Below are positions 4,983 to 54,846 of a DNA stretch of 64,000 nucleotides, one piece after another. A program made the position numbers and the translations under genes. Numbering within the stretch: the stretch's first letter is position 1; every line of letters starts with the position of its first letter. The DNA lies in the IMG/VR virus record IMGVR_UViG_3300045988_169460. One strand, written 5' to 3'. The notes under the pieces are model-generated. The model did not search any database, was not told the DNA's origin, and saw nothing but the letters and a program-made list of their open reading frames with translations. Origin of the DNA: a virus.

Positions 4983-5180
4983 TTGAAAGGTTTTGAGAAA
5001 CGTTTAAGTAAACAAAATTTTATGTTAATTAAAGTAAATGAATATTATTTTATTAGAAAAAGCAGAGCGTTTAATAATAGTTATATGGTATTAGATTCAA
5101 AAGGGTATTTGATAGATTAGTTACAAGAAAAAATAGTTTGGCAAGTTTTTTTAGGCATAGATTTGGAGGAATGGGAATGA
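4983..5180 (+). pseudogene. EWE-tail small ORF interrupted by in-frame TAG (5118-5120)
   Basis: TTG start 5 nt after GGAGG; after the TAG the frame continues 19 codons to ...DLEEWE-TGA with the junction motif. Confidence 0.45.
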
Positions 5181-5392
5181 TTAAAAAACCTAATAATAAT
5201 TGTAGATTATGTAAGTGTCTTCATAACTATAGCTATTTTAAAAAAGGTGAATATTATTGGGCTGAATTAGGAGAACGTTTTTTTGCTGGTGCAGTTATAG
5301 TATATTTTGGGGATGAAAGACATGGTATATGCTCTATGGTTTTTCCCGACTTTTTCATTAAATTTCGATGGGAGGAGACACAATGGGAATGA
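5177..5392 (+). CDS. small protein with C-terminal WE tail (-QWE)
   Basis: ATG overlaps upstream TGA (ATGA); ends ...ETQWE with AATGGGAATGA. Confidence 0.55.
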   Translation: MIKKPNNNCRLCKCLHNYSYFKKGEYYWAELGERFFAGAVIVYFGDERHGICSMVFPDFFIKFRWEETQWE

Positions 5393-5589
5393 GGATAACA
5401 GTAACTCCAAAAAGACAACTTATACATTATAATTTAAATGAACAATATATAGCAGTGTCTGTACTTAGTGTGTATGGAAGCATGGAATATAATATTTATA
5501 GCAAAAAAGGCAATCTTCTAAATTCTTGGGTATCCTAAGAGGCATTATTTAAGTTTTTTAAAAAGGTGGTGGATAAAGAATGGGAATAA
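5383..5589 (+). pseudogene. EWE-tail small ORF interrupted by in-frame TAA (5536-5538)
   Basis: frame continues 16 codons after the TAA to ...DKEWE-TAA with the junction motif. Confidence 0.4.
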
Positions 5590-5650
5590 AATTAGTAAAG
5601 GCAAAAGATAATTCGGCTCATTTTAGTCGTGGAGAATTGTATAAAGTAAT

Positions 5651-5661
5651 AATGGGAATAA
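5651..5661 (+). repeat. orphan copy of junction motif AATGGGAATAA
   Basis: exact motif, but its TGG-GAA-TAA frame has stop codons immediately upstream. Confidence 0.6.
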
Positions 5662-5676
5662 AAGGAGGAAATAAAA

Positions 5677-6054
5677 ATGGAACCAATTATTAGTCCGTGG
5701 GTATTTTATTTTATTGATAAGTTAGAGGTAATAGAAATGCTTCCACTATATGTTTTTATTTTGGCAATATTAATAAATGGGGCATTACTTATGACTAGTA
5801 AAACCGAAGAAGAGTTTGAAAAGGGGTTTTTCCCAAAAGTGTGGATAGCACTTTTCTCATTAGTGTTTATAATTAATTTTATAGTTCCTTCAAAAGAAAC
5901 GGCATATAAAATGATTATAGCAAATTATGTAACACCTAACAGTATTTCTATAGTAAAAGAAGCCACAGAAGATAATATTGCTTCTTTATTAGATAAAATA
6001 GCAGTTACTTCACAGGCATTATCAGGAAGGGAGGAAAAAGAAAAATCCAAATGA
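5677..6054 (+). CDS. membrane protein (paralog of 48945-49248)
   Basis: AGGAGG RBS; two hydrophobic segments; ISPW...PSKET similarity to ORF 48945. Confidence 0.65.
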   Translation: MEPIISPWVFYFIDKLEVIEMLPLYVFILAILINGALLMTSKTEEEFEKGFFPKVWIALFSLVFIINFIVPSKETAYKMIIANYVTPNSISIVKEATEDNIASLLDKIAVTSQALSGREEKEKSK

Positions 6055-6251
6055 AACAGATAGAAAAAGTAAAGAAATTATATAAACCAAAATTTGAAAT
6101 AGTAAGAGCAGAGAAAGTAAAAGATAATTATATATTATTCTTAGATGATAAAAATATTATATTAGAAGAAGATGCTTTTAAATCATTATTTGAGCTTTAT
6201 AGTGCTTTAGTTTCTTATTATGATGTAAGAAAGGATGAAACAAATGATTGA
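6051..6251 (+). CDS. hypothetical protein
   Basis: ATGA overlap with upstream ORF. Confidence 0.5.
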   Translation: MKQIEKVKKLYKPKFEIVRAEKVKDNYILFLDDKNIILEEDAFKSLFELYSALVSYYDVRKDETND

Positions 6252-6939
6252 ATTATTCAATGGGAATTGTTTTGAAGTAATCGGGGGGGGGGCAGTAAAA
6301 GATAATAGTATAGATTGTATTATTACAGACCCTCCCTATAATGTTAGCAGAGAAACAAATTTTCATACTTTAAAGGGAGCTTTAAGAAATGGAATGGATT
6401 TTGGAGAATGGGATAAAGGATTTGACATAACAGGTTATATTAAGTTGTTTCCTAGAATTCTAAAAGAAAATGCAAATGTTGTTATATTTAATGCTTGGGA
6501 AAATTTAGGAGAAATAGCAAAAGTATGTAGAGAATTTAATATAGCTCCTAAAAGATGTTTAGTGTTAAGTAAATCAAATCCCGCTCCATTTAATAGAGAT
6601 AGAATGTTTGTTAATGATGTAGAATTTGCAATATGGGGAGTTTACAATTCTAAAAATAAACCTTCTAAATGGACATTTAACAGAGAAAATTTATTAGAAA
6701 AATGTGTGATTCCAACAACAGTGCAGTCTTCTAAATTACATCCAACAATGAAGGATGAGAAAGTAATAAATTATTTGTTGCGAGTTTTAACAAATGAAAA
6801 TGACTCAGTTTTAGATTTATTTATGGGGAGTGGCACTACAGGAGTTGCTTGTCGTAAATTAAAAAGAAATTTTATAGGCATAGAATTAGATACTAGGTAT
6901 TTTGAAGTAGCAAAACGTAGAATAGAGGAAATAAAATGA
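6235..6939 (+). CDS. DNA methyltransferase (N6-adenine/N4-cytosine, beta class) containing a G10 tract
   Basis: IITDPPYN motif IV near N-terminus, FMGSGTTGVAC motif I near C-terminus; G10 at 6283-6292. Confidence 0.85.
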   Translation: MKQMIELFNGNCFEVIGGGAVKDNSIDCIITDPPYNVSRETNFHTLKGALRNGMDFGEWDKGFDITGYIKLFPRILKENANVVIFNAWENLGEIAKVCREFNIAPKRCLVLSKSNPAPFNRDRMFVNDVEFAIWGVYNSKNKPSKWTFNRENLLEKCVIPTTVQSSKLHPTMKDEKVINYLLRVLTNENDSVLDLFMGSGTTGVACRKLKRNFIGIELDTRYFEVAKRRIEEIK

Positions 6940-7208
6940 TTATACGCAAAGGTGATTATTTTAAAGTTCATACTTTTTTCAAGTATGATGGTAATTCCTT
7001 TTTTAAAGGAAATTTATTACGAATAGTAAGTGATTTTTCAGTTGAGGAAGATGGCTTTTGCACAGTTTCTAATAAAGCTTGGCAAGGAACATCAATAGGG
7101 CATACAAATGCAGGAAATCAATATAGTTTTGGTAAAGGAACACATTGGAATATTCCCATTAATTTTATAGAAGAACAATGTATTCCTGTGAGTCTTGAAT
7201 GGGAGTGA
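6936..7208 (+). CDS. small protein, EWE tail, family A
   Basis: paralog of 7213-7500 and 41440-41703 (NQYSFG...NW motif); ends LEWE. Confidence 0.6.
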   Translation: MIIRKGDYFKVHTFFKYDGNSFFKGNLLRIVSDFSVEEDGFCTVSNKAWQGTSIGHTNAGNQYSFGKGTHWNIPINFIEEQCIPVSLEWE

Positions 7209-7212
7209 AAAC

Positions 7213-7500
7213 GTGAAATATAAGACAGGAGATTTTTTAATAGTTAAATCCCCTTTCAAAAGTGATGGTAATATTTTTCATGGAGAAGATATTCTTCGTG
7301 TGATTACATGTATTGATGATTATGCTGATGCTAATGAGAATGGCTATGTAATATCTAATAAATCTTGGATTTTTAGTCGAGAGGGGCATAGTGTATATCG
7401 CAATAGTGCATATAGTTTCGGTAGAAATACAAATTGGTTTGTAAGATTTACTGTTTTAGAGGCTCATTGCACTTTATTAAAGAATAGAGAGTGGGAGTAA
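7213..7500 (+). CDS. small protein, EWE tail, family A
   Basis: GTG 7 nt after GGGAG of upstream junction motif; ends REWE. Confidence 0.6.
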   Translation: MKYKTGDFLIVKSPFKSDGNIFHGEDILRVITCIDDYADANENGYVISNKSWIFSREGHSVYRNSAYSFGRNTNWFVRFTVLEAHCTLLKNREWE

Positions 7501-7630
7501 CAATGAGAGCATTTAGAGCACAGCAGTTTTGTAAGGCTTTTAATTTATATAAACAAAGAGGATATAGTATTAGTTATCTTTGGATGTTATTTAGTAAGAA
7601 CTTATAGATTTTATTAAATGAGGTGTTATT

Positions 7631-8041
7631 TTGAGTGAGTATTTTGAGTTATTTTTAAAGAAAAACAATTTAATGTTTAATCAAAAGTTTCAGGTTTTGG
7701 ATTATGATGGAAAATATGCTGTTGGTAATGGGGCAAAATTTTGGATAGCAGATAATAAACTTCATTGTGATAATCCAGAGATGAATACTCGGCTTATTAT
7801 GTTAGAACTATTTGCTGGTAATTGTAGTGTAAAACAACTTCCTTATTATCCCACAAATGGTGATGTATATTTTTATATTTATATGGACGGAAGCAATAAT
7901 CAGGGAGTTGTATCTAAGGGAGTATTTTATGGTAATTTAGTAGACCAGCTTTTGCGAAGTTTAGGAAAATGTTATAGAACTAGAAATGAAGCAGAAGAGC
8001 ACTTAAAAGAGGATGTTAATTTTTTATTAAAAGGAAGATGA
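7631..8041 (+). CDS. hypothetical protein (paralog of 51213-51626 and 60959-61372)
   Basis: shared C-terminal GKCYRTRNEAEEHL-type segment. Confidence 0.6.
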   Translation: MSEYFELFLKKNNLMFNQKFQVLDYDGKYAVGNGAKFWIADNKLHCDNPEMNTRLIMLELFAGNCSVKQLPYYPTNGDVYFYIYMDGSNNQGVVSKGVFYGNLVDQLLRSLGKCYRTRNEAEEHLKEDVNFLLKGR

Positions 8042-8045
8042 AAAA

Positions 8046-8297
8046 ATGGAAGATAAGCTATTAATTATTTTAGAAAGTTTAGAAAATAAAGGAGATATAA
8101 ATTCTGAAATAGATTTATCTGAAACAGGTTATACTCCAAAAGTTATTAAAGAATTATTACAGTCTTTAGGCTATAAAATGGTTAGTGGTTCTTGGGATTG
8201 TTACGATTTTTCAGAGGAATATGGGAAAGAGGGGGCATCAAATGTGGTGCTATCTTTTAATGCAGAAACTTTTAAATTCACAATAATGGGGGTATAA
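8046..8297 (+). CDS. hypothetical protein
   Basis: ORF packed on same strand. Confidence 0.5.
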   Translation: MEDKLLIILESLENKGDINSEIDLSETGYTPKVIKELLQSLGYKMVSGSWDCYDFSEEYGKEGASNVVLSFNAETFKFTIMGV

Positions 8298-8299
8298 AA

Positions 8300-8620
8300 A
8301 TGACACTAGAAGATATTGCAGTAATGAGTACAAAAGTTCCACAAGAGTTGTTAATTTCTTATATGCAAGATACCTCTTTAATTTATCTTATAGCGATTCT
8401 TGCTAGCTTCTCTTTATTGATATCTCTTATTATTTTTCTAGGATGGCAAGTATACGATGGAGTAACAGCATTGAATGAGGTGCAGGCAATTAGTGCCATG
8501 ATTTTTTTAATAGGTATTTCTCTTTTTACTATTGGAGCTTTTTTTCAGGCTTTTGAAAGTTTTATTTTTTATTTTAATTGCTATTTTAATCCATTAATTA
8601 TGATATTACAGGCGGTGTAA
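8300..8620 (+). CDS. membrane protein
   Basis: two to three long hydrophobic segments. Confidence 0.55.
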   Translation: MTLEDIAVMSTKVPQELLISYMQDTSLIYLIAILASFSLLISLIIFLGWQVYDGVTALNEVQAISAMIFLIGISLFTIGAFFQAFESFIFYFNCYFNPLIMILQAV

Positions 8621-14485: not shown

Positions 14486-14722
14486 ATGGTGTTTTTAAAT
14501 AATAATATAGAATATGGTAGATTTCAAAAAGCAGTTCAAGGGATTACTGTATTAAACGAAAAACAGATACGAAAATTTTGGCACAAATTTAAAAAAGGTA
14601 TTTCTAAAAATGAAATTAATATAAATCTCTTTTTTCCAGAATTTATAGAAACTATATTTGAGGGACAGGAAATATGGATTCTAAAGGAGTGGGTTATATT
14701 TGAAGAAAATGCTGAAATTTAA
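14486..14722 (+). CDS. small protein; internal KEW at a degenerate junction motif
   Basis: AAGGAGTGGGTTATA at 14683-14697 resembles the EWE-stop motif but lacks the stop; ORF runs 8 codons further. Confidence 0.5.
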   Translation: MVFLNNNIEYGRFQKAVQGITVLNEKQIRKFWHKFKKGISKNEININLFFPEFIETIFEGQEIWILKEWVIFEENAEI

Positions 14723-14957
14723 AAGCGGCGTAGATTATCGAACGTTTAGGTTTATATTTGGAACTGACAAACTTTCTTATAAAGCTTCTCACAATCTTTG
14801 GAAAGAGCTTTCTACTGGGGTATCAAAAAAGCGTTTAAATTTAACATCAGTCGAAGGTTCACTACTTTATGAGTTTGAATACCTTAATGAAAAGTATTGT
14901 TATTTTCCTGAGTTTTGGTTTGAAGAAGTTAGGTATTCTGATATTGAATGGGAGTAA
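14700..14957 (+). CDS. small protein, EWE tail
   Basis: ends DIEWE with AATGGGAGTAA. Confidence 0.55.
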   Translation: MKKMLKFKSGVDYRTFRFIFGTDKLSYKASHNLWKELSTGVSKKRLNLTSVEGSLLYEFEYLNEKYCYFPEFWFEEVRYSDIEWE

Positions 14958-14960
14958 AAA

Positions 14961-15203
14961 ATGGTAAAATTAAAGGAAGGATTAGGGCATGCTGAGTGGC
15001 TTTGGTTTATGCACAATTCAATACAGTTTAGAAATGCTTGTTATGTAGATGCTAATATATTATGGAATATGTTAAAAGATGGGGTTTCAGAAGATGCCTT
15101 AAAAATCAGAGATGATAGTACAGGTTATAAAGAAATCTGTTATAAAGAAGTTAAATATGCCTTACCTATAAAGTGGTGTTTGCCAATTTTTGAATGGGAA
15201 TAA
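14961..15203 (+). CDS. small protein, EWE tail
   Basis: ATG 8 nt after GGGAG; ends IFEWE with AATGGGAATAA. Confidence 0.55.
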   Translation: MVKLKEGLGHAEWLWFMHNSIQFRNACYVDANILWNMLKDGVSEDALKIRDDSTGYKEICYKEVKYALPIKWCLPIFEWE

Positions 15204-15210: not shown

Positions 15211-15239
15211 TTGACAAAAAGAAAAAAATATGGTATAAT
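15211..15239 (+). promoter_or_regulatory. sigma-A-type promoter
   Basis: TTGACA, 17-nt spacer, TGgTATAAT; begins 8 nt after the junction motif. Confidence 0.7.
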
Positions 15240-35797: not shown

Positions 35798-35815
35798 TAG
35801 ACAGGAGGATTAGCT

Positions 35816-36656: not shown

Positions 36657-36667
36657 TTATGATATAA
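36639..36667 (+). promoter_or_regulatory. sigma-A-type promoter abutting a hairpin
   Basis: TTGACA, 17-nt spacer, TGaTATAAT. Confidence 0.7.
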
Positions 36668-36697
36668 TAGAGGTGTAGTCAAGGCTACGCCTCTATT
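36668..36697 (+). terminator. terminator hairpin starting 1 nt after the -10 box
   Basis: AGAGGTGTAG / CTACGCCTCT 10-bp stem (one G:U), 6-nt loop, ATTTT. Confidence 0.55.
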
Positions 36698-36718
36698 TTA
36701 ATTATAAGGAAGGTTAAA

Positions 36719-37224: not shown

Positions 37225-37229
37225 GAAAC

Positions 37230-38077: not shown

Positions 38078-38078
38078 A

Positions 38079-38687
38079 ATGGATAATTGCGAATTTTATT
38101 TATTATATAGCGGCGGGTATGATAGCACTGTGTTGCTTTATGATTTTATTGATAAATTACCTAATAAATTGACAGTAATACATATTGTTACTCAGTATAA
38201 TCAAGAAGAAACAAAAGCGGCAAGAGAGATAATTGAATTAGTAAAAGACAAAATTCTTAACTATATTGAATTAGAAATGCCTGTTTATAAAACAGAAATA
38301 GAATATATTCCATACAGAAATGCTCAATTTATATTAAGAGCACTTTCAACCTTGACAATTAAAGCAGGATGTGCTATAATATTATTAGGGTTGATAAGAG
38401 TAGAAGAACCTTTTCCTGATTGCACACAGTATTGGTTAAAAACAATGGAGAAATTAGTTCAAGTAGAAAATCCTCATATTGGATTAGAAGCACCTTATAT
38501 TAACAATACTAAAGATGAAATTTATACTGTAGGATGTAAGTTTAAGGTTCCTTTAAGAAATACTTTTAGTTGTAACTTTCCTGTAGATGGTGCAGAATGC
38601 GGGGAATGTGGAAACTGTAAATGGAAAGCAAAACATAAATATCCTAATTATTTTAGAGTTATAGAAGGAGGTAGAAACAATGTTTAA
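38079..38687 (+). CDS. queC: 7-cyano-7-deazaguanine synthase
   Basis: LLYSGGYDSTVLL PP-loop; C-terminal CNF...CGECGNCKWK zinc cluster. Confidence 0.8.
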   Translation: MDNCEFYLLYSGGYDSTVLLYDFIDKLPNKLTVIHIVTQYNQEETKAAREIIELVKDKILNYIELEMPVYKTEIEYIPYRNAQFILRALSTLTIKAGCAIILLGLIRVEEPFPDCTQYWLKTMEKLVQVENPHIGLEAPYINNTKDEIYTVGCKFKVPLRNTFSCNFPVDGAECGECGNCKWKAKHKYPNYFRVIEGGRNNV

Positions 38688-38880
38688 AATTATTAATGGT
38701 AAGGGAACAGGTTCTAACACACAAAAGAGTGCAGTGAATACCTCCCCACAAGTGAAGATTACTAGCCCAGCAACAAGAAGAAGTTTATCTTGGCTTAGAA
38801 GGGTGCAAACAAGTTTAACTCCAAGAACAAAAAAAGCTTTAGATTGGTTAGAAGCCAATAGTGTTAGATTACCTAAATAA
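38680..38880 (+). CDS. small basic protein
   Basis: ORF between queC and the dpdA-like gene. Confidence 0.45.
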   Translation: MFKIINGKGTGSNTQKSAVNTSPQVKITSPATRRSLSWLRRVQTSLTPRTKKALDWLEANSVRLPK

Positions 38881-38895
38881 TAGGAGAATTAGTTA

Positions 38896-40737: not shown

Positions 40738-40762
40738 CAATAATCCCTTAATATGGTATAAT
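40734..40762 (+). promoter_or_regulatory. sigma-A-type promoter with -10 box in a terminator loop
   Basis: TTGACA (contains the dpdA stop TGA), 17-nt spacer, TGgTATAAT. Confidence 0.7.
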
Positions 40763-40788
40763 AAAACTATATTAAGGGATTTTTTTTA
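40743..40788 (+). terminator. terminator hairpin enclosing the -10 box
   Basis: 12-bp stem ATCCCTTAATAT / ATATTAAGGGAT, 14-nt loop, T8. Confidence 0.7.
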
Positions 40789-40802
40789 AGAGGTGGCAAT
40801 AA

Positions 40803-41120
40803 ATGAAGAGAATTAGTTATGGAAAAAGATTTAGATTATTAGAAGAAGGGTATATTGGATACAAGTGGTTTTCTAAAGGGTCAATATTTATGGCTACAGG
40901 ATTAATTAGTTTTATGGGTAATAATATATTCCGTGTTTATAATCCTGATGGCAGTTTAAGACAAGATTTGCATACTGGTAATGGACATGTAAATTTTTTT
41001 TTAAGTTTATCTCCTATATCAAAAGATGAGCTTTTAGCATCAGAAGAATGTTATTGGTTTTTAAATGATATAGAATTAAGAACTTATTTTAAAGAAATTG
41101 TCTATGAGGAATGGGAGTAA
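40803..41120 (+). CDS. small protein, EWE tail, family B
   Basis: paralog of 41126-41434; ends YEEWE. Confidence 0.6.
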   Translation: MKRISYGKRFRLLEEGYIGYKWFSKGSIFMATGLISFMGNNIFRVYNPDGSLRQDLHTGNGHVNFFLSLSPISKDELLASEECYWFLNDIELRTYFKEIVYEEWE

Positions 41121-41125
41121 GAGTT

Positions 41126-41434
41126 ATGAAAAAATACAAAGAAACTTTTATAGTAAAAAGTCAGTTTTCTGATGGATTAAGGACTTTTCCTAAAGGAACA
41201 ATATTTGAAAGCACAGGAGTTTTTTTTGGCATTGAAACACTTTTTTGTGTTTACTATCCCGATGGAGTTCCTTATGCTTGTTTACATGATGGCAATAGTG
41301 CTCAAATAATGCTTTTAAATAGAACACCTTTAACATTAGCTGAAATTCGAGCACAAGGTGATTGTCATTGGTGGGTTAGAAATTCTGATATTGATGAATA
41401 TTTTATACCAAAATCATCTTTAGAATGGGAGTGA
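41126..41434 (+). CDS. small protein, EWE tail, family B
   Basis: ATG 8 nt after GGGAG; ends SLEWE. Confidence 0.6.
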   Translation: MKKYKETFIVKSQFSDGLRTFPKGTIFESTGVFFGIETLFCVYYPDGVPYACLHDGNSAQIMLLNRTPLTLAEIRAQGDCHWWVRNSDIDEYFIPKSSLEWE

Positions 41435-41439
41435 AAAAA

Positions 41440-41703
41440 TTGAACATAATACTAGGAGAATATTTTATAGTTACTAGACCTTTTAGATATGAGGGCAATG
41501 TATTTCATAAAGATGATTTATTACGTGTAGCTAAAATATATAGTTGGTCTAAAGTTTTAGTTTCCAATAGAGCTTGGATATCAACTAAAGTAGGACACAC
41601 AGACCCAAAAAATCAATATAGTTTTGGTGAAGAAACAAATTGGAATATTGATACAGAATATTTATTTAAAAATTGTGTTCCTTATAGGTCAGAATGGGAG
41701 TAG
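41440..41703 (+). CDS. small protein, EWE tail, family A
   Basis: TTG 8 nt after GGGAG; NQYSFG...NW motif; ends RSEWE. Confidence 0.6.
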   Translation: MNIILGEYFIVTRPFRYEGNVFHKDDLLRVAKIYSWSKVLVSNRAWISTKVGHTDPKNQYSFGEETNWNIDTEYLFKNCVPYRSEWE

Positions 41704-41708
41704 TGGAG

Positions 41709-42065
41709 ATGAAATATAAAGCAGGAGATGTAGTAAAAATTGACAAAACAAGATTTGTTATAGAAAGAGTTACTAAAAAAGGCTATATTTTATTTCCTCA
41801 TATAGGATTTTTCGTAAAGGATTGCCAAATAAATAAAAAAATTAAAGTGAAGAAATCTTATGAATTAGGAGATAAATTCAAATGTCTATGTGACTTTAGT
41901 TCAGGGACTTCTGTGGCGAAAAAAGACAAACATTATATTTGTACACAGAAATTTTCAGATGGCACATATATGCTTACAAGAATAAAAAATAAAGAAGAGA
42001 AATTAAGAGTGAATACAAATCAGATTCATGCTTATTTTAGACATTATTTTGGAGGTTGGGAATAG
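41709..42065 (+). CDS. small protein, GWE tail
   Basis: ATG 8 nt after GGGAG; ends FGGWE. Confidence 0.55.
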   Translation: MKYKAGDVVKIDKTRFVIERVTKKGYILFPHIGFFVKDCQINKKIKVKKSYELGDKFKCLCDFSSGTSVAKKDKHYICTQKFSDGTYMLTRIKNKEEKLRVNTNQIHAYFRHYFGGWE

Positions 42066-42268
42066 TGCCAATAGGAACAAGAGTAAGAATAAGAGAAGAT
42101 TTAAAAACTACAGAAACTTATGGTGGCGTAAGAGTTATAGAAGATATGCTAGTTTATGCAGGTAAAGAAACAACAATAATTTGGCATGAAGCTAATGTAT
42201 ATCATATACTTTTAGATGATGGTTTTTACTATTGGACAGATGAAATGTTTATTAGTGAATGGGAATAA
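42065..42268 (+). CDS. small protein, EWE tail, family C
   Basis: PIGTRVRIREDLK...YYWTDEMF; paralog of 45232 and 50088; ends ISEWE. Confidence 0.6.
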   Translation: MPIGTRVRIREDLKTTETYGGVRVIEDMLVYAGKETTIIWHEANVYHILLDDGFYYWTDEMFISEWE

Positions 42269-42275
42269 AAAAGTC

Positions 42276-42304
42276 TTGACAAAATAAAATAGTTGTGGTA
42301 TAAT
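42276..42304 (+). promoter_or_regulatory. sigma-A-type promoter (identical copy at 43135)
   Basis: TTGACA, 17-nt spacer, TGgTATAAT. Confidence 0.7.
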
Positions 42305-42337
42305 AAGTGCATAAGATATTGAAAGAGAGGTTATAAC

Positions 42338-43129
42338 ATGTGTATTATAATTTATAAACCAGCAAAAGCTACACTAAAAAAAGAAACATTAAAAACAGCA
42401 TTTGAAAACAATCCTGATGGTGCAGGATTTATGTACCAATCTGATTTACTTGAAGCTCCTAAAATGCAAAAGGGATTTTTTGATTTTGATAAATTTTATG
42501 AGGCATATGAGAAAGTGGCTGAAAGTGATAAAGGTTATAATATTGCTGTTCATTTTAGAATTGCAACGCATGGAGCTGTTAATAGTTTAAACTGTCATCC
42601 TTTTATTGTTAAAGAAAGTGTTGAAAAAACTATTAGCGAAAAAGGACAGTATAGTTCTTTATTTATGCAAAATGGTGTTATTAAAAGTATTTCTGTAAAT
42701 AAGAAAGATAAATATAGCGATACTTGTAATTTCACCTATAAAATTATGTCTAAAATTAAAACATTAACAAGCATGAAGATAAAAGATATTCTGGAAACTA
42801 TTGAATCTCCAAGTAGATTTTGTTTAATGCAAGAAGGGCGAAAACCTTTATTGATTGGTAGTTTCAAAAAAGATGGTGGAGTAAGCTTTAGTAATGAATC
42901 CTATAAAGAAATAAAAATTGTTACTTCTTATCCTACTACTTTTGAAACTTATTTACTTGCATTCGAAGATTGCGATGCAAAAGATATTAGAGATATTGAA
43001 ACAGAACTTAAAGATGACCAATGTGGAATTATTGATGCTTATAATGTAGGAGATGTGACTTTCTTTGAAACGAACTATCTCCCTATTAGAGAAAAGATTG
43101 CAGGTAAAGAATTTCGATGTTATCGTTGA
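42338..43129 (+). CDS. class-II (Ntn) glutamine amidotransferase-like protein
   Basis: N-terminal MC nucleophile, NPDGAGF, HFRIATHG, NCHPF motifs. Confidence 0.7.
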   Translation: MCIIIYKPAKATLKKETLKTAFENNPDGAGFMYQSDLLEAPKMQKGFFDFDKFYEAYEKVAESDKGYNIAVHFRIATHGAVNSLNCHPFIVKESVEKTISEKGQYSSLFMQNGVIKSISVNKKDKYSDTCNFTYKIMSKIKTLTSMKIKDILETIESPSRFCLMQEGRKPLLIGSFKKDGGVSFSNESYKEIKIVTSYPTTFETYLLAFEDCDAKDIRDIETELKDDQCGIIDAYNVGDVTFFETNYLPIREKIAGKEFRCYR

Positions 43130-43134
43130 AAAGT

Positions 43135-43163
43135 CTTGACAAAATAAAATAGTTGTGGTATAA
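43135..43163 (+). promoter_or_regulatory. sigma-A-type promoter (identical copy at 42276)
   Basis: TTGACA, 17-nt spacer, TGgTATAAT. Confidence 0.7.
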
Positions 43164-43196
43164 TATAAATACACTAAAAATAAAGGAGATAATAGT

Positions 43197-43589
43197 ATGA
43201 ATTTTCGCATTAACGATGTAGTAACATTAAAACAAGGATTGACAGGTGAAAAAGAAAAGTATAGTGGCAAGACTTTAATGATTCGAGCGATTTCTGATGG
43301 TAATTACATTATGAAAGTACCAAATAAAACTGCACCAAAAGACAATCGTGAACTTATGGATGTAAGTTTTAATGACACTGATATTCAATTAAATCCTTTA
43401 GAAGTAAAGGTAGAAACTGATTCTGATGGGATAATTGATATTATGGCTAAAAATTCAAAAGATGAATGGATTGCAATTTTACGGTTACAGGATGGAGAAT
43501 TATTGCGTAAAAAAGATTTAGCAAAACAAGGTTTTTCTGGCTTGAAGTTAGACTTTAAAGGAAGACTTCGGTTAGTAACCAGTTATTAA
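43197..43589 (+). CDS. hypothetical protein
   Basis: ATG after AAGGAG. Confidence 0.55.
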   Translation: MNFRINDVVTLKQGLTGEKEKYSGKTLMIRAISDGNYIMKVPNKTAPKDNRELMDVSFNDTDIQLNPLEVKVETDSDGIIDIMAKNSKDEWIAILRLQDGELLRKKDLAKQGFSGLKLDFKGRLRLVTSY

Positions 43590-43897
43590 TGTTACCTGAA
43601 TATATAAGTGCTGAAAATGGAATAAAGTATGTGCCTTTTACTGGCAATATTTTATTCCTTAAAAGTATATTATATGAACACAATAATTTTCCAATAAGAT
43701 TACTTTTAGAAGAAGAACAATTATCCGCTTTTATCATTGTTTACGTAACAGCAAAGAACTTAATTTGTGTGGATACAAGTTCAGAAGGTAAATTGTTTGA
43801 AAGTATTTTAAAAATACCTGTTAGCACTTTAAAAGAGCGTGTGTTTGAGGGAATAAATTATGAAATTTACATTAAACAAACTGCTTTAGGAGAGTAG
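43589..43897 (+). CDS. hypothetical protein
   Basis: TAATG overlap. Confidence 0.5.
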   Translation: MLPEYISAENGIKYVPFTGNILFLKSILYEHNNFPIRLLLEEEQLSAFIIVYVTAKNLICVDTSSEGKLFESILKIPVSTLKERVFEGINYEIYIKQTALGE

Positions 43898-43900
43898 CCA

Positions 43901-44236
43901 ATGAAAAGATATCACATAGCAGTAAAATTTGATAAAGAAAAGATAGCAAATATAGATTTCTGTAAATTACATTTAATATTTACTAAACATTTTAAACAAA
44001 GAGCATGTTTAAAAAGGATTCCTAAGCCTTATAAAGCTCTGTTAAAAAGGGGCAAGATTTTTGAATATTATACAGATGATAATGAAAATTTGCTTAAATT
44101 TGTCATACGTTGTAAATACAATGAAAATTGTGATGTTTGTTATGTGTTAACTCCTACTGGCAGGGTTATTACTGGTTGGTGGCAAGATACAAATGATAGT
44201 CATTCAACATTAAAAATAAATTTATATGAAAGGTGA
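43901..44236 (+). CDS. hypothetical protein
   Basis: ORF packed on same strand. Confidence 0.5.
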   Translation: MKRYHIAVKFDKEKIANIDFCKLHLIFTKHFKQRACLKRIPKPYKALLKRGKIFEYYTDDNENLLKFVIRCKYNENCDVCYVLTPTGRVITGWWQDTNDSHSTLKINLYER

Positions 44237-45214: not shown

Positions 45215-45231
45215 ACTAAGGAGGCTTGCAA

Positions 45232-45450
45232 ATGATACCAATAGGAACAAGAGTAAGAATAAGAGAAGATTTAAAATTAGGTGTACTTTATAAAAACAGA
45301 AATAATAAACGTGCTATGCATGCTTGTAGAGGCATGTTATTATTGGCTGGTAAAAAAGCGTACATAACAAATAATGTTAATAATATTTACTCTATAGATA
45401 ATGGTTTTTATTATTGGACAGATGGAATGTTTGAAACTGAATGGGAATAA
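45232..45450 (+). CDS. small protein, EWE tail, family C
   Basis: ATG 7 nt after AGGAGG; IPIGTRVRIREDLK...YYWTDGMFETEWE. Confidence 0.6.
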   Translation: MIPIGTRVRIREDLKLGVLYKNRNNKRAMHACRGMLLLAGKKAYITNNVNNIYSIDNGFYYWTDGMFETEWE

Positions 45451-45458
45451 AAAAAGTC

Positions 45459-45487
45459 TTGACAAAATAAAAAGAAAATGATATAAT
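45459..45487 (+). promoter_or_regulatory. sigma-A-type promoter
   Basis: TTGACA, 17-nt spacer, TGaTATAAT. Confidence 0.7.
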
Positions 45488-45517: not shown

Positions 45518-46687
45518 ATGTTAAATTGCAAAATTTGCGGTAATGAAATTAGTGGAGCTTATACAATTTATCAAAAAGACGGAGTAGAATATCCAGCACA
45601 CATTGAATGTGTCGAAGAAAACAAGCAACATTGTGATGAGTGCAATAAGTTTTTTGATAGAGAAGATTTAAAAACTACAACATTAGGAAACCATTATTGC
45701 CCAGATTGTTTGTCTGAAAAAACTGTAGTTTGTGGAAAATGCGGTAAACACGTAGAAAATGCACCATTGAAAAGAGTAAATAGTGTATCTTATTGTCAAG
45801 AGTGCTTTGAACAGAAATGGGTATATTGTGTAAAATGTGGTAAAAGGGTTTTAAGAAGCAGAGCAAAAAATTTAAATAATACACATTATTGCGCTTCATG
45901 TGCTAGTTCTGTTGTTAAGGTAGAAAATTATAGTTACAAACCTACCCCTATATTTTGTGGTGTAGATAGTTCTCGTTATTTTGGTATTGAAGTCGAAACT
46001 GAGGGCAGAAAAAGTAATCTTTATGCAGAAGAAATTATTGGAGGTTCAAAAATTTTCTATGCAAAACATGATGGCAGTTTAAATAATGGAATTGAATTTG
46101 TAAGTCATCCTTGCACTCTTAACTATTGGAGAGAGGAATCCAAGCTTGATGAATTTTGTAAAAGAGCGATTGGTTTAGGATTTAACTCTCATAAAACTAC
46201 TTCTTGTGGATTGCATGTTCATATTACTAAATCTACAGTAGAAAGGGAAGCTTTTGAAAAAGTGCTTCTGTTTTTAAGCAATAACTGGGATGATGTGGTG
46301 AAATTTACACGCCGTAAAAGTTCCAGCATTAATAGATGGGCGGCTAATAATTTAGGGGATGCACCAATGATTAAAACTTGTACTCTTGCACAAAAAATGA
46401 AATTAGTAAAAGAGTATTCTTCTGGCAGTCGTTATGTAGCAGTAAATGAAACATCTAAGACATATGAATTCCGTATTTTTAGAGGAACTTTAAAACCTGA
46501 AACTATTTTAGCTTGCATTGAGTTTTGTGATGCTCTTATCAATTTATGTGCTAGTTTGCCTTTTGCAAACATTGAAACAGCTAATTTTAATACTTTAATA
46601 GAATTTGCAAAACCTAAAGGATGCTATAAAGAGCTTGTAGAATATTGGGAAACTCGAACAATGAAGAAGAATGTTGTTATTGAATAA
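45518..46687 (+). CDS. amidoligase (glutamine-synthetase-like carboxylate-amine ligase family) with four N-terminal zinc-ribbon repeats
   Basis: repeated CxxC...CxxC units; YFGIEVETE, KHDGSLNNGIEFVSHP, GLHVHI, YEFRIFRGTL core. Confidence 0.65.
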   Translation: MLNCKICGNEISGAYTIYQKDGVEYPAHIECVEENKQHCDECNKFFDREDLKTTTLGNHYCPDCLSEKTVVCGKCGKHVENAPLKRVNSVSYCQECFEQKWVYCVKCGKRVLRSRAKNLNNTHYCASCASSVVKVENYSYKPTPIFCGVDSSRYFGIEVETEGRKSNLYAEEIIGGSKIFYAKHDGSLNNGIEFVSHPCTLNYWREESKLDEFCKRAIGLGFNSHKTTSCGLHVHITKSTVEREAFEKVLLFLSNNWDDVVKFTRRKSSSINRWAANNLGDAPMIKTCTLAQKMKLVKEYSSGSRYVAVNETSKTYEFRIFRGTLKPETILACIEFCDALINLCASLPFANIETANFNTLIEFAKPKGCYKELVEYWETRTMKKNVVIE

Positions 46688-46723
46688 AAAACTTTTATAC
46701 TTAAAGAAAGCAGAGTGATATAA

Positions 46724-47332
46724 ATGTGTATTGTAATTTACCAACCTAAAGGAAAGCAAGTGCAAAAAGCAATTTTACAGAAAGCATTTGAAAACAATCC
46801 TGATGGTGCAGGATTTATGGTTCAAAAAGATAAAGAAGCACCATATATGATGAAGGGATTTTTTGATTTTGATAAATTTTATAAATCATATCTTCCATTT
46901 TCTAAAGGGGATTATAACGTAGCAATTCATTTTAGAATTGCTACACATGGAACAGTAAACAAAGATAACTGTCATCCATTTAAAATTTCTTCTGATATTG
47001 CTGATACTGTTTTATTTAATGGCAGGGCAGATTCGCTGATAATGCATAATGGCATTATTAGTAGCATTATGACACCAAGAAATCTGCCATATAGTGATAC
47101 AATGAATTTTATTGCAAAGATTTTATGTTGGATGAAAGACCTTAAATCTAAAGATTTGACAGAAGTATTAAAAAACCTCGAAAGTTATTCAAAGTTTTGT
47201 ATAATGAGAAAAGGATTTGACCCCATTCTAGCGGGGCTTTTTATTGAAGATAGAGGTATTTTTTATAGCAATTCAACTTATAAATATAGTTATGTTAATA
47301 CTTTTCAAAATTGTAAAACTTATTTAAATTAA
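46724..47332 (+). CDS. class-II (Ntn) glutamine amidotransferase-like protein
   Basis: MC start, NPDGAGF, HFRIATHG, NCHPF; paralog of 42338. Confidence 0.7.
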   Translation: MCIVIYQPKGKQVQKAILQKAFENNPDGAGFMVQKDKEAPYMMKGFFDFDKFYKSYLPFSKGDYNVAIHFRIATHGTVNKDNCHPFKISSDIADTVLFNGRADSLIMHNGIISSIMTPRNLPYSDTMNFIAKILCWMKDLKSKDLTEVLKNLESYSKFCIMRKGFDPILAGLFIEDRGIFYSNSTYKYSYVNTFQNCKTYLN

Positions 47333-49918: not shown

Positions 49919-50101
49919 ATGTTGTGCTATAAAGATATGTCATTTTGTTCTGCTAGCTACAAAGAAGCAGAAAAACCTTGTATTTGCACTGAATGTTTTA
50001 GGCATTTAAGCAAAGTTCCTGAAAATTTGCCTGATTATATGCCAGTAGCTGTATCTGATTTCTCTAAAGAATGTGAGGAATACAAATATGCGAGAATTTA
50101 A
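49919..50101 (+). CDS. small Cys-rich protein
   Basis: C...C.C..C pattern. Confidence 0.5.
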   Translation: MLCYKDMSFCSASYKEAEKPCICTECFRHLSKVPENLPDYMPVAVSDFSKECEEYKYARI

Positions 50102-50327
50102 AATAGGAGACAGTGTTTTAATAAGAACAGATTTAGTAGTAAATCATGTATATAGGACTAATAATGGTGCTCAACGTGCTTATTTTGCAAAACAAATGAC
50201 AAAGTATAAAGGGAAGAAATTATTAATAGTAGGCAAGGATTATAAAGGTTATATATGTTCTTATAACGAAGAAGTTCTTGGTTGGACTTTTGTAAATGAA
50301 ATGTTTGAAGATATTGAATGGGAATAA
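50088..50327 (+). CDS. small protein, EWE tail, family C
   Basis: FKIGDSVLIRTDL...GWTFVNEMFEDIEWE. Confidence 0.6.
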   Translation: MREFKIGDSVLIRTDLVVNHVYRTNNGAQRAYFAKQMTKYKGKKLLIVGKDYKGYICSYNEEVLGWTFVNEMFEDIEWE

Positions 50328-50333: not shown

Positions 50334-50362
50334 TTGACTTTTAAGCTTTATTGTGGTATAAT
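50334..50362 (+). promoter_or_regulatory. sigma-A-type promoter
   Basis: TTGACT, 17-nt spacer, TGgTATAAT. Confidence 0.65.
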
Positions 50363-50382: not shown

Positions 50383-50589
50383 ATGACAAAAGTTGAATTA
50401 TTTAATAAATTTTTAGAGGATAGTGATGCAACAATAACAATATCTTTCTTATTCTGTAAAGAAAATTATGGTTTATTTTTCAAACATAGAAATTTAGCTT
50501 GTATCTTATCTTTATGGCATTTTCAAATTTTAATTCATAAAGGAGATTTATTAAAATATTGTTCAGAAAAATTAAAGGAGCGTAAATAG
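50383..50589 (+). CDS. hypothetical protein
   Basis: ATG after AGGAGA. Confidence 0.5.
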   Translation: MTKVELFNKFLEDSDATITISFLFCKENYGLFFKHRNLACILSLWHFQILIHKGDLLKYCSEKLKERK

Positions 50590-50591
50590 AA

Positions 50592-50918
50592 ATGGAAACA
50601 GTACAATTAGAGCAAATAGCAAATAACTTAATAGCTAAATTAGAACCAGCATGTGTAGAAGTATTAAATCAAGGAGCAAATTTTGTAGCAACAGAAGCTT
50701 TATATTTAGTTATTATAAACATTGTATTTTTTATGGTTTGTTTTATTGGCATTTGGCTTGCTTCAAATATAAGAGATACAGATATTCAAGAAGTTACAAT
50801 AGCCGTACTTTTAGTAGGTGCTCTTTTATCAGCGGCTAATTTTCTCTTAACTTTTTCGCATAATATGGCTACAATTCAATATCCTATGGGGTATTTAATA
50901 GTAAATGTATTAAAATGA
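50592..50918 (+). CDS. membrane protein
   Basis: two to three TM segments. Confidence 0.55.
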   Translation: METVQLEQIANNLIAKLEPACVEVLNQGANFVATEALYLVIINIVFFMVCFIGIWLASNIRDTDIQEVTIAVLLVGALLSAANFLLTFSHNMATIQYPMGYLIVNVLK

Positions 50919-50928
50919 GGTGATAAAA

Positions 50929-51213
50929 ATGAATTTTGAAAAAGCGTTAAAAAAAGTAAAAGACATCGTATGGAAATGGCAGTTTTCTGAAAAGAGAGAG
51001 GCATTTATTCAGGTTATAGTAGCCGCTCAAAAACAAATTCCAAAATTAGCAAAAGTAAGTGTAGTACCTCAATATATTGAAGGAAGGGAAATGCCTAAAT
51101 TAGTTCCTGTAGATGTACGTTGTCCTGAATGCGATTCTATAGTATCCATAAGAGATAATTATTGTTCAGATTGTGGGCAAGCTCTTAGTTTTGATTTTAA
51201 GGAGGGGCATTAA
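50929..51213 (+). CDS. zinc-ribbon protein
   Basis: CPECDS...CSDCG; ATG 6 nt after GAGGTG. Confidence 0.5.
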   Translation: MNFEKALKKVKDIVWKWQFSEKREAFIQVIVAAQKQIPKLAKVSVVPQYIEGREMPKLVPVDVRCPECDSIVSIRDNYCSDCGQALSFDFKEGH

Positions 51214-51626
51214 TGTATAGCAAGTATATCCAACAATTTTTAGAAGATAATGATTTACAAGCAGGTGAAAAATTTTATATTTTGGGAGAAGATGGTGAGG
51301 AATTAAATGGCAAAAGTAACTATTATTTTAAAATAAATCCAGAGAGCACACTTGATATTTTAAAATGTGATAGTGATAGAACTTGTCAGGATTTTGTTTT
51401 ATTAAGATTATTGACTGAAAAGTATAAAGTGAAGAAAACACCTTTTCATCCTAAAAAACATGAAACGTTTTATTATGTAACTGTTCAAGGAGATATTGAA
51501 GAAGAAGACTTTTATGAGGGATATACATTTCATTATTTATTATGTAAACTAGGAAAATGCTATAAGACTTATAAGGAAGCAGAAAAACATGTAGAAGAAG
51601 ATGTTAAATTTTATAAAAATATGTAA
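51213..51626 (+). CDS. hypothetical protein (paralog of 7631 and 60959)
   Basis: first ~22 codons nearly identical at nucleotide level to the minus-strand gene 60959-61372. Confidence 0.6.
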   Translation: MYSKYIQQFLEDNDLQAGEKFYILGEDGEELNGKSNYYFKINPESTLDILKCDSDRTCQDFVLLRLLTEKYKVKKTPFHPKKHETFYYVTVQGDIEEEDFYEGYTFHYLLCKLGKCYKTYKEAEKHVEEDVKFYKNM

Positions 51627-52511: not shown

Positions 52512-52976
52512 ATGATAATATTAAAGAAAACGGAAAGAATAATAAAAGTTCCTACAATGCTTTCTACATCACAACAAAGAAAAAATGATATATTAGTTGA
52601 TTTATTACATCGTGCATACCCTTCAATAATACAAGGAGTATTATTACAGCGGTTAAAGAAATCTGAATTAGGAATAATAATGATGTCTCTAACATGGAGA
52701 GTGGCAGGGGTAAGATATGTACAGCTATCAACAAATTATGGAGCCTCTTTAGTAAAGAGAGAGCAAGCATATAGAAGTATATGCAAAGTAGAGATAAATA
52801 GAGAATTAATGAGAGATTTATTTTATAGTTTCGCAAATTTTTTTATTTATGATTTTTCTATAAGTGATTATAATAGAATATTTAAGGATTTTCTTTATAC
52901 AGGCGATTGGTTTGAAGATTTACATACTTATTTAGGTTATTATATTCGTTATATGAATTTAAAGGAATGGGAGTAA
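52512..52976 (+). CDS. small protein, EWE tail
   Basis: ends NLKEWE with AATGGGAGTAA. Confidence 0.55.
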   Translation: MIILKKTERIIKVPTMLSTSQQRKNDILVDLLHRAYPSIIQGVLLQRLKKSELGIIMMSLTWRVAGVRYVQLSTNYGASLVKREQAYRSICKVEINRELMRDLFYSFANFFIYDFSISDYNRIFKDFLYTGDWFEDLHTYLGYYIRYMNLKEWE

Positions 52977-53461: not shown

Positions 53462-53463
53462 AA

Positions 53464-53646
53464 ATGAGATATATGGAAATAGAAGAAAAATATATGAATA
53501 GACTGACAAAAGAGATAAATGTGGCGGCAAAATATGGGTGGGAAGTAGTAACTACAATTTTCAATGGAGAAAAGTATATAGCATTATTAAGAACAGAATC
53601 GAATGAAAGTGTATATAAACCAGAAACATTTAAGTTTAGAGTTTAG
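53464..53646 (+). CDS. small DUF4177-like protein
   Basis: AAKYGWEVVT...KYIALL pattern, similar to 59626-59754. Confidence 0.45.
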   Translation: MRYMEIEEKYMNRLTKEINVAAKYGWEVVTTIFNGEKYIALLRTESNESVYKPETFKFRV

Positions 53647-53677
53647 AAAAAAGGGCGGGAAAGAATAAATAAAATAC

Positions 53678-53706
53678 TTGACAATGAGAATAATAAGTGA
53701 TATAAT
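53678..53706 (+). promoter_or_regulatory. sigma-A-type promoter
   Basis: TTGACA, 17-nt spacer, TGaTATAAT. Confidence 0.7.
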
Positions 53707-53740
53707 ATAGACAAGAGGTAAGGAAAAGGAGATTGATATT

Positions 53741-53923
53741 ATGAAAAAATCATATCAAGTATTTTATTGGATTAAAGCTAATAGACAAGAAACATTAAAT
53801 CACATTTTTATCATGGCGAATAACGCAAAAGAAGCATGCAGAAAATGTAAAGAATTAGTATTAGAAAGAACAGGAAGAGATGCTTTTAGACCCACAGTTA
53901 ATAGTCCATATCCTTATAAATAA
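53741..53923 (+). CDS. hypothetical protein
   Basis: ATG after AAGGAGA. Confidence 0.5.
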   Translation: MKKSYQVFYWIKANRQETLNHIFIMANNAKEACRKCKELVLERTGRDAFRPTVNSPYPYK

Positions 53924-54163
53924 TGAGGGGAAACACAAGGGCGGGAAAATAGGTGAAAATAAGAGCGGGAAGAATATATAAGAAGTATATAGCTAAGAAT
54001 AGTATTGATATAGAACATATAGTAGTAAGAGGGTAAAAGAAATAATATTTTATCTGTAACTATAGAAGAAATAAGATATGATTATAAGAACAAAGAGTTA
54101 TAATTTGTATAATGCAATTCTGTGCTTACAAAAAAGAAATATTATATAATACACATTTGTATT

Positions 54164-54203
54164 TTTGTATAATACTTATTCATAAATTTGTATAATACTT
54201 ATT
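54164..54203 (+). repeat. tandem 17-nt direct repeat TTTGTATAATACTTATT (period 23) within a TTTGTAT-rich tract
   Basis: copies at 54164-54180 and 54187-54203; related TTTGTATAATGC at 54104-54115. Confidence 0.6.
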
Positions 54204-54357
54204 TGTATTCAAGAAACCTCCCTTTAAAGGCGAATTTGAAAAGCGATTTCAAATTTTGTTGTAAAAACAACAGAATGGTAATTAAAGGTACACACGTATG
54301 GAGGTAAAAGGGCATAAAGCTAGGTGTAGCAAGGGTTGAAGGGTGTGAGAATAAAAA

Positions 54358-54846
54358 ATGTGGATACAGTATAATCTTGTAGATGTAAGAAATTTAGACA
54401 CTATTGAAAAAGAGTATTACGATGTTGAGACTGATGTTAAAATGCACAAACTTATAATGAATCAATGGCAAGAATTAATAAAACATAATGAATATTTAGG
54501 AGTAACTCCAAAAGAGATATCTGTACTTATAAGGTGGGCAATTTCATATTCTTTAGGTAGAAGAATATATATAAAAACAGGATTCAACTATACAAGAGAA
54601 ATAGGCTATACAGGTGTTCCACAGATATATGAGTATCTTTTAAATGAAACACAGCCATCAATAAGAGGGACTACTAAATGGGTAGATTTTATTATATGTC
54701 TTATTAGAGTAGTAGAGAAACTGACAGGTAGAAGGAATTTAGGTAGCTTGCTTCCTTGCAGGTCAGCAACTTATAGAGAACAAATAGAGTGGTTAATAAA
54801 ATTTTATCTTAGATTTTATAATAGCAGAAGCGATGAATGGGAATAA
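54358..54846 (+). CDS. protein with EWE tail
   Basis: ends RSDEWE with AATGGGAATAA. Confidence 0.55.
   Translation: MWIQYNLVDVRNLDTIEKEYYDVETDVKMHKLIMNQWQELIKHNEYLGVTPKEISVLIRWAISYSLGRRIYIKTGFNYTREIGYTGVPQIYEYLLNETQPSIRGTTKWVDFIICLIRVVEKLTGRRNLGSLLPCRSATYREQIEWLIKFYLRFYNSRSDEWE

Follow-up and report, generated by a model that had tools for sequence, protein, structure and literature searches.

An 11-nucleotide (nt) sequence, AATGGGARTRR, recurs at gene junctions along the 64,000 nt of viral DNA analysed here (IMG/VR virus record IMGVR_UViG_3300045988_169460; the whole stretch is called the window below). A preliminary description of the window had wavered between a recombination linker, a translational-coupling signal, a shared C-terminal peptide tag and a combination of these as its role. 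Judged by comparison with related phages, the 11-mer is the codon image (GAA/GGN/CAA-TGG-GAR-stop) of a C-terminal signature, [E/G/Q/D]-W-E-COOH, and not a DNA element in itself. As far as their sequences can be compared, this signature is carried by at least 20 unrelated families of small proteins, mostly of 70-110 amino acids (aa), and about one gene in eight of this human-gut phage has such an end. For the observations as a whole we lean, with some reserve, towards a composite explanation, in which a conserved peptide signature would be overlaid by Shine-Dalgarno sequences, the turnover of gene cassettes would be a by-product, and the free end of the chain would act as a docking tag.

Occurrence of the motif and of the -WE ends

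The counts given for the motif and for the protein ends that it encodes were both recovered, the former at the exact coordinates. Exact copies of AATGGGARTRR, 16 in all and every one on the + strand, end at positions 5180, 5392, 5589, 5661, 7208, 14957, 15203, 36976, 41120, 41434, 41703, 42268, 45450, 50327, 52976 and 54846, and three variants differing by one or two bases end at 7500, 37224 and 42065. In 100 dinucleotide-preserving shuffles the motif appeared 0.48 times on average and four times at most. The shorter core, TGGGAR followed by a stop codon, has 20 copies, all of them on the + strand, against a shuffle mean of 3.05; the extra copy, ending at 836, does not lie at the end of an open reading frame (ORF). 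Non-terminal TGGGAR is spread evenly over the three frames (14, 12 and 13), with none on the - strand.

The enrichment is confined to protein ends. Among the 123 non-nested ORFs of the + strand, 16 intact ones end in Trp-Glu (13 in -EWE, two in -GWE and one in -QWE), against 0.13 expected from the amino-acid composition. Internal WE is not enriched, 14 being seen for about 20 expected overall, and of the 14 EWE tripeptides in the ORFs of the window 13 are terminal. The expectation that related genomes would show the same enrichment was borne out, and it was seen there and nowhere else: the 5573 ORFs in 82 loci of unrelated phages hold no -WE end, and none was found when such ends were looked for in phages with a DpdA-like protein at most 41% identical.

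The last part of the window (59600-64000) stands apart in several ways. Its coding strand and its GC skew change sign after about 59.6 kb (skew -0.25), it has no -WE ends, and it shows large replacements between relatives (59925-62429).

A terminal peptide as the conserved unit

Contigs of about 96-99 kb from close relatives of the phage, 96-99% identical at the nucleotide level, turn up commonly in viromes and metagenomes of the human gut, and a sister lineage (IMG/VR contig 151690, QWCY01000219.1) is about 75% identical (66-78%). The idea that an 11-nt DNA motif is the conserved unit fails in the sister lineage, whose loci (L016, L028 and L132) hold 10-12 -WE ORF ends per 21 kb and keep the W and E codons and the stop only. 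The residue before the Trp is there mostly G, Q or D, and is spelled GGT, GGG, GAT, GAG or CAA. The conserved unit is TGG-GAR-stop, and the leading AA merely comes from the usual GAA codon, which accounts for 76% of the Glu codons in this phage. All full-length homologues within the clade have the WE end, the exceptions being truncated or frameshifted, and the W-E terminus is evidently under purifying selection. A more general caution for motif scans follows from this case: what looks like a strand-specific "DNA motif" between genes may be no more than the trace that a conserved protein end leaves in the DNA.

The proteins that carry this end are diverse. Within the window, BLAST sorts them into three families, a weak pair and six singletons, all of them, like the decayed genes described below, encoded on the + strand. 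Family A comprises g7208 (6936-7208, 90 aa, ending in -LEWE), g7500 (7213-7500, 95 aa, -REWE, with the variant spelling GAG-TGG-GAG) and g41703 (41440-41703, 87 aa, -SEWE). Family B consists of g41120 (40803-41120, 105 aa, -EEWE), which opens a five-gene operon of -WE genes throughout behind a promoter at 40734, and of g41434 (41126-41434, 102 aa, -LEWE). Family C groups g42268 (42065-42268, -SEWE), g45450 (45232-45450, -TEWE), a monocistronic gene with promoters at 45167 and 45459 on either side, and g50327 (50088-50327, 79 aa, -IEWE). The weak pair is formed by g14957 (14709-14957, 82 aa, -IEWE) and g15203 (14961-15203, 80 aa, -FEWE).

For the clade as a whole, BLAST groups 113 distinct -WE proteins into 22 clusters. 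When the last three residues were trimmed and the clusters were compared with hhalign, those of family C (2, 6 and 18) alone were joined, at 82-93% probability, and all other pairs stayed below 45%, nearly all of them below 20%. A wider set of 197 proteins forms 29 clusters at 45% identity; all of these have an invariant W and E, and position -3 is E in 13 of them, G in 11, Q in three, and N and S in one each. An exhaustive HMMER search with family A against 1.84 billion representatives returned eight proteins, of family A only and all from within the clade save the weakest, a repetitive 158-aa protein; the full-length members all end in -EWE or -AWE. The preliminary description had named trivial paralogy as the finding that would undo it, and the 22 clusters and their hhalign comparison exclude, at the level of sequence similarity, a single recently duplicated family.

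Three lines of comparison indicate that the tail is anchored to the free end of the chain and not to a fold. The first comes from out-of-clade homologues of family C (P0041, P0043, P0044, P0046, P0047 and P0049), which share the stretch ...WTDEMFED and lack the WE end, finishing in ...EDADA or ...DDLSLPMSCVSLL or running into another domain. The second is the length of the spacer: within the clade the distance from EMF to WE in family C varies by one residue between orthologues, and in family A the conserved Cys lies 6-9 residues before the W. The third is a two-domain protein of 136 aa in L028, whose N-terminal family C domain (hhalign 93%) has no tail at the domain boundary and which carries -GGWE at its true C-terminus only.

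Decayed copies at 4929-5661

Three copies of the motif without a long ORF (ending at 5180, 5589 and 5661) turn out to be decayed genes, not free-standing DNA motifs. The ORF at 4929-5120 runs on in frame past its TAG (5118-5120), which stands where relatives have TGG (W), to an end in ...EEWE at 5180 (motif 5170-5180), and L033 and L034 hold an intact 83-aa counterpart ending in ...DWLEEKIVWRVFSGIDLEEWE. In the same manner, the ORF at 5389-5538 runs on past a TAA (5536-5538, CAA for Q in relatives) to ...KEWE at 5589. The third copy, at 5651-5661, had been presented as out of frame behind stop codons and hence as an argument against a protein role. This argument falls, for the copy belongs to a remnant (5580-5661) of a 69-aa gene ending in -NFGWE, the interior of which is deleted and the 3' end kept; the gene is whole in L032 and L044 and precisely missing from L033.

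All three inactivated genes (TGG to TAG, CAA to TAA, and internal deletion) are intact in close relatives. A reassignment of the stop codons at 5118 and 5536 was considered and rejected, as the first is a TAG and the second a TAA, and both positions hold sense codons in relatives. The inactivated block at 4929-5661 reflects either relaxed selection or a variant of the population or of the assembly.

A possible common descent of the -WE proteins

Annotation says little about what the carriers do. Pfam and PHROGs searches with the -WE proteins gave phrog_7488 and phrog_17705 (family C) and phrog_1945 (g42065) only, all without an assigned function. One database source names a family C homologue "Ribosomal protein L21e". 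Sequence searches of the PDB with profiles of families A and C returned nothing meaningful, and homologue searches with g42065 (41709-42065, 118 aa, ending in -GGWE) and with g54846 (54358-54846, a 162-aa singleton ending in -DEWE) recovered in-clade sequences only. For g50327, AlphaFold2 gave a confident SH3-like barrel, with a predicted local distance difference test (pLDDT) score of 88 overall and of 92-95 in the barrel, and with its last nine residues as coil at a mean pLDDT of 73. Among known structures the model is best matched by the Mind bomb Mib repeat, L21e and SH3 domains, with template modelling (TM) scores of about 0.6 and weak Foldseek E-values (0.1 or above).

Several observations weigh against a peptide tag carried by unrelated proteins. 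Since Trp has one codon and Glu two, both of which are used, the nine bases and the peptide W-E-stop are formally inseparable by sequence. The Trp of g50327, for which the model is a summary without coordinates, may pack on the barrel, and the model of g54846, all-helical at pLDDT 44, is unusable for fold assignment. Domain scans of about 25 of the 123 ORFs, covering the larger ORFs and some neighbours of -WE genes, gave no candidate for a peptide-binding (reader) domain. Finally, many -WE proteins are 70-107 aa long and begin with K-x-G-D/E-x-hydrophobic, and the stretch from -14 to -9 is rich in aromatic residues (40% against 12% in other small proteins), so that a hidden common origin is possible for a large subset of them.

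This last possibility can be taken further. All or most of the -WE genes might go back to a single small ancestor that multiplied in tandem arrays and whose copies diverged past recognition by sequence, the -WE end and an aromatic helix being then an inherited element of the fold. Besides the common size, start and aromatic stretch, such a history would suit the tandem arrays (five genes at 40803-42268 and five in L028 at 7148-8331), the array neighbours of cluster 5, already at the limit of detection by BLAST, the SH3-like fold of family C, and the beta-rich look, by eye, of several other families. Against it, 19 of the 22 clusters have no hhalign relationship, and the members of 154 and 162 aa look helical, albeit at low confidence. 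The homologues of family C beyond the clade keep the fold and lack WE, linkers differ in length, and the internal boundary of the two-domain protein carries no WE. We regard deep paralogy as unlikely, while giving it real weight.

Cassette gain, loss and recombination

The window was compared with 46 related loci for all insertions and deletions (indels) of at least 40 nt. Three of these are scar-free indels of a whole cassette between direct repeats of the motif. They concern the 69-aa -NFGWE gene, with the repeat ATGGGAATAAAA (L032 versus L033), g15203, with the repeat TGAATGGGARTAAAA (window versus L033), and a 97-aa gene ending in -DESWE between g36976 and g37224, with the repeat TGGGAATRA (L019 versus window). 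The site at 36.7-37.2 kb holds zero, one, two, three or five different -WE cassettes depending on the genome. The identical ends of 9-17 nt that flank each gene would on occasion permit the scar-free loss or gain of a cassette.

It had been proposed that cassettes come and go at the motif. The three precise indels support this in part, but at least five other deletions of -WE genes break outside it (5590-5650, 36983-37187 in 19 loci, 36732-37588, 40771-41412 and 50435-51586), and some 45 further indels are unrelated to it. In several of the off-motif deletions the final 23-38 nt of the lost gene survive, apparently because this tail is the Shine-Dalgarno sequence of the next one. A case in point is the 83-aa gene at 36973-37224, which ends in -YGWE with a variant copy of the motif: its interior is gone in 19 related loci, and its last 38 nt, with the Shine-Dalgarno sequence for the gene at 37230, are kept.

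These data bear on the proposal that the motif is maintained as a site of microhomology or crossover for the in-frame shuffling of cassettes, after the manner of the PeSL elements of T4-type phages. The scar-free indels on motif repeats and the changing cassettes at 36.7-37.2 kb are what such a linker would produce. However, an array of identical gene ends is expected to yield motif-flanked whole-gene indels without any selection, a 9-nt repeat favours loss over gain, the flanks of TGGGAR are not conserved in the sister lineage, and at least five deletions of -WE genes, several of them sparing a 3' tail, break elsewhere. We consider a recombination linker rather improbable and read the turnover of cassettes at the motif as a by-product, not as the reason for its conservation.

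One further contig of the comparison, L125 (OKUX01000736.1, 4392-4481), joins position 41648 to position 7064 within a 90-nt stretch common to g41703 and g7208. It was rejected as a real rearrangement, as the join falls within two family A paralogues; the contig is probably a chimera of the assembly, or possibly a recombinant between paralogues.

Junction grammar and translational coupling

The relation of the motif to the following gene obeys rules that had been proposed from the window and that hold: GAG copies precede a start codon, other copies overlap one, and operon-final copies are followed by a promoter or a hairpin. All eight GAG copies of the window have a start 3-6 nt past the stop, against none of the eight intact GAA copies, and in all eight the GGGAG lies 7-9 nt before the ATG, GTG or TTG that opens the next ORF. 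This spacing supports the option, raised at the outset, that such copies serve as the Shine-Dalgarno sequence of the next gene and couple its translation. Thus, in g7208 the last codon is GAG and the GGGAG is the Shine-Dalgarno sequence of the GTG at 7213, in g14957 the last codon is GAG with the next start 3 nt past the stop, and a singleton of 154 aa (52512-52976, ending in -KEWE) has GAG before the start at 52982.

GAA copies either overlap the next start (ATGA, TAGTG) or close an operon. Copies of the form TGGGAATGA overlap the next ATG. Among the ATGA overlaps are those of the 71-aa gene ending in -TQWE (5177-5392) with the next gene at 5389 and of the 85-aa gene g36976 (36719-36976, -EEWE) with the gene that follows; in GAA copies of this kind the Shine-Dalgarno sequence sits further upstream. 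In g42065, which has a variant copy, the TAG overlaps the next GTG and a GGAGG lies upstream. Copies of the form TGGGAATAA are followed 6-8 nt on by a promoter, TTGACA-N17-TGnTATAAT, at 15211, 42276, 45459 and 50334. Not every copy serves a start, therefore: those ending at 15203 (the operon-final g15203, GAA TAA, with its promoter at 15211-15239), 42268 (the operon-final g42268, promoter 42276-42304), 45450 and 50327 (promoter 50334-50362) precede promoters, and that ending at 54846 precedes a strong hairpin (54836-54882; ΔG -20.3 kcal/mol, z -7.1), at which a simple terminator scan made no call. The point that operon-final copies keep -WE with no need of a Shine-Dalgarno sequence was borne out.

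Across 70 distinct junction contexts in the clade the same wobble rule holds. Where the next start lies 3-6 nt past the stop, the last Glu is spelled GAG, with TGGGAG as Shine-Dalgarno sequence, and where the next start overlaps the stop or the operon ends the preferred GAA is used. A single pair of orthologues illustrates it: g14957 ends in GAG-TAA-aaaATG where g15203 follows, and its orthologue in L033, where g15203 is missing, ends in GAA-TAA and then a promoter, with WE in both. Whatever the function, this is a case of dual coding, in which the peptide fixes seven bases and the ribosome-binding site of the next gene the eighth.

Coupling explains the wobble base and the choice of stop codon, but neither the invariant Trp nor the operon-final copies. 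It could be argued that the sequence alone matters, as a Shine-Dalgarno or termination-reinitiation context in which -WE is a passenger, and the position of the GAG copies and the way in which the wobble base tracks a downstream start speak for it. Yet the five operon-final copies and the four copies in start/stop overlaps use GAA and are not at the position of a Shine-Dalgarno sequence, GGGAG is weaker than the GGAGG or AGGAGG used elsewhere in the phage, and the codons AGG, GGG and GGA would do equally well where Trp is invariant in 29 clusters. Moreover, the orthologue that lacks a downstream gene kept WE and altered the wobble base only. The operon-final copies by themselves largely refute a pure translation signal, and we hold it to be very improbable.

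The ATG inside the motif (A-ATG-GGA-GT) was also considered as the usual next start and was rejected, having no properly spaced Shine-Dalgarno sequence; the exception is the 69-aa -NFGWE gene, which seems to start at such an internal ATG. Rfam and tRNA scans of the window gave no match, and hence no known RNA element at the junctions.

The phage lineage and its other genes

The window has a G+C content of about 30% and a strong G skew on the + strand. An 8-kb stretch (36000-44000) found no match by megablast in 50,697 phage records, and a scan of bacterial genomes with family A for a host or a prophage found no relative. With its 19 consensus extended -10 promoters and its GGAGG-type ribosome-binding sites, the window points to a Firmicute-like host. 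The phage belongs to a lineage of about 97 kb with low G+C content, found in the human gut, with promoters and ribosome-binding sites of Firmicute type. Early expression of the -WE genes is probable, as consensus sigma-70-type promoters precede them.

Among its products are an Mtd-like protein, a tail fibre, a helicase, a primase, a family A DNA polymerase and RecA. A 605-aa protein (1012-2829) has an Mtd second domain (PF21916), of the receptor-binding type that is diversified by diversity-generating retroelements. The polymerase gene (24458-26699) is split by a 208-nt insertion (about 26123-26330) of intron-like look, which is missing in L010 and two more relatives and had no match in Rfam; removing the insertion restores the frame. 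In other relatives, insertions sit at 25755-25796 (265-1494 nt) and near 26271-26826 (520-579 nt). Further hot spots lie in the RecA gene at 28225 (320 nt, 10 loci), at 32195 (at least 275 nt, 25 loci) and at 33813 (about 1250 nt, six loci), and these three are probably introns or homing-endonuclease cassettes. The region 34135-35978 is highly variable, with ten deletion end-points among relatives that remove 310-1556 nt, and its ORFs include Cys-rich and Pro-rich ends (..NGCCN, ..PSEPVPSN).

A neighbourhood for 7-deazaguanine DNA modification encodes a YspA/SLOG protein, QueC and a 613-aa DpdA-like transglycosylase (phrog_887). Genes of hypermodification type span 37715-40737, 42338-43129, 45518-47332 and 57026-58480. 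They include two Amidoligase_2 genes (45518-46687 and 57026-58480), the products of which have zinc-ribbon or LIM-like N-terminal parts, and two paralogous proteins with a Met-Cys start (42338-43129 and 46724-47332), weakly alike to class-II glutamine amidotransferases and, in one case, with a weak match to GATase_4. Amidoligases and amidotransferases are reported to co-occur with phage DNA-hypermodification genes (PMC8989533), which together with this neighbourhood makes DNA modification a likelier role for the amidoligase and GATase-like genes than the ligation of Glu. The whole is likely a DNA-hypermodification cluster and suggests that the 7-deazaguanine base is further amidated.

Two observations on the surroundings of these genes may be added. 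Identical promoters of 29 nt (TTGACAAAATAAAATAGTTGTGGTATAAT) at 42276-42304 and 43136-43164 flank the GATase-like gene at 42338-43129, and a block combining a family C gene and a promoter with the 5' part of a GATase-like gene occurs in two copies that are about 71-73% identical (42056-42605 versus 45220-45472 and 46706-46982).

Pup, which ends in -GGE/Q, is ligated by an enzyme like glutamine synthetase. The notion that the C-terminal Glu of the -WE proteins is a comparable handle, a substrate of the Amidoligase_2 and GATase-like proteins for a Pup-like or RimK-like modification, finds encouragement in the fact that both amidoligases and both Met-Cys proteins come directly after -WE genes and that the last residue is always Glu, often after GG in the sister lineage, but we give it next to no credence, since these enzymes sit in a QueC, DpdA-like and YspA/SLOG cluster for 7-deazaguanine modification, of the kind alongside which they have been reported in phages (PMC8989533), and since the -WE proteins, unlike Pup, are spread over 50 kb and comprise at least one folded SH3-like domain.

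A possible docking tag

Of the roles first proposed, the shared C-terminal peptide tag is supported insofar as the motif encodes a terminal peptide signature. What such a tag would do is a matter of analogy: a free -WE-COOH end may be a docking tag by which many different small proteins engage one partner, of the host or of the phage. Our tentative proposal, in which we place somewhat less than even confidence, is that -[E/G]-W-E-COOH is a lineage-specific address tag docking more than 20 unrelated, probably early, proteins on a single hub. In a bolder form of this proposal, the amidoligases of the phage would modify or ligate the terminal Glu.

If this were so, the consequences would be practical as well as conceptual. 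One synthetic peptide ending in ...EWE-COOH could fish out the target of about twenty orphan families at once. A collection of "hypothetical proteins" would become a functionally linked set and would point to a host hub that is attacked or exploited, in a lineage that is recovered from many human-gut metagenome assemblies. Such a tag would also be a viral counterpart of -SKL or -KDEL, which is not described for phages. Searches of the literature for an EWE motif and for C-termini common to the early proteins of phages brought up nothing relevant, and we know of no described phage equivalent of the shared -WE tail.

Comparison with known systems

The PeSL of T4-type phages is an intergenic composite of about 100 bp that joins a sigma-70 promoter to a stem-loop (Arbiol et al. 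2010, PMC2839356). The -WE junctions resemble it as a repeat found between small, variable orphan genes, in hyperplastic regions and near sigma-70-type promoters, and by the precise cassette indels between close relatives. They differ in that PeSL is conserved as intergenic DNA and the present element as a peptide, two codons and a stop inside coding sequence, in that four of the 19 copies here abut a promoter, and in that most breakpoints lie off the motif.

Two other comparisons each cover a part of the system. What the GAG and GAA copies show here resembles translational coupling in which the upstream gene holds the Shine-Dalgarno sequence at its 3' end, or in which stop and start overlap as ATGA or TAATG; known coupling junctions leave the invariant Trp and the operon-final copies unexplained. 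Small beta-barrels of the SH3-like, Mib-repeat and L21e-like kinds resemble the family C model, a likeness that concerns one -WE family only and is silent on the tail.

The -WE end is best classed with the short C-terminal motifs that are common to unrelated proteins. The PTS1 signal -SKL, -KDEL, -EEVD and the SSB tip -DDDIPF each bring unrelated proteins to one receptor through a C-terminal tag. With these the -WE end shares a short, invariant and free C-terminus, borne by unrelated folds, set off from them by linkers that vary in length, and missing from the homologues in other lineages. It differs from them in its sequence, an acidic or small residue followed by Trp and Glu, which matches no known tag, and in its putative role, and its carriers are the orphan small proteins of a single phage lineage.

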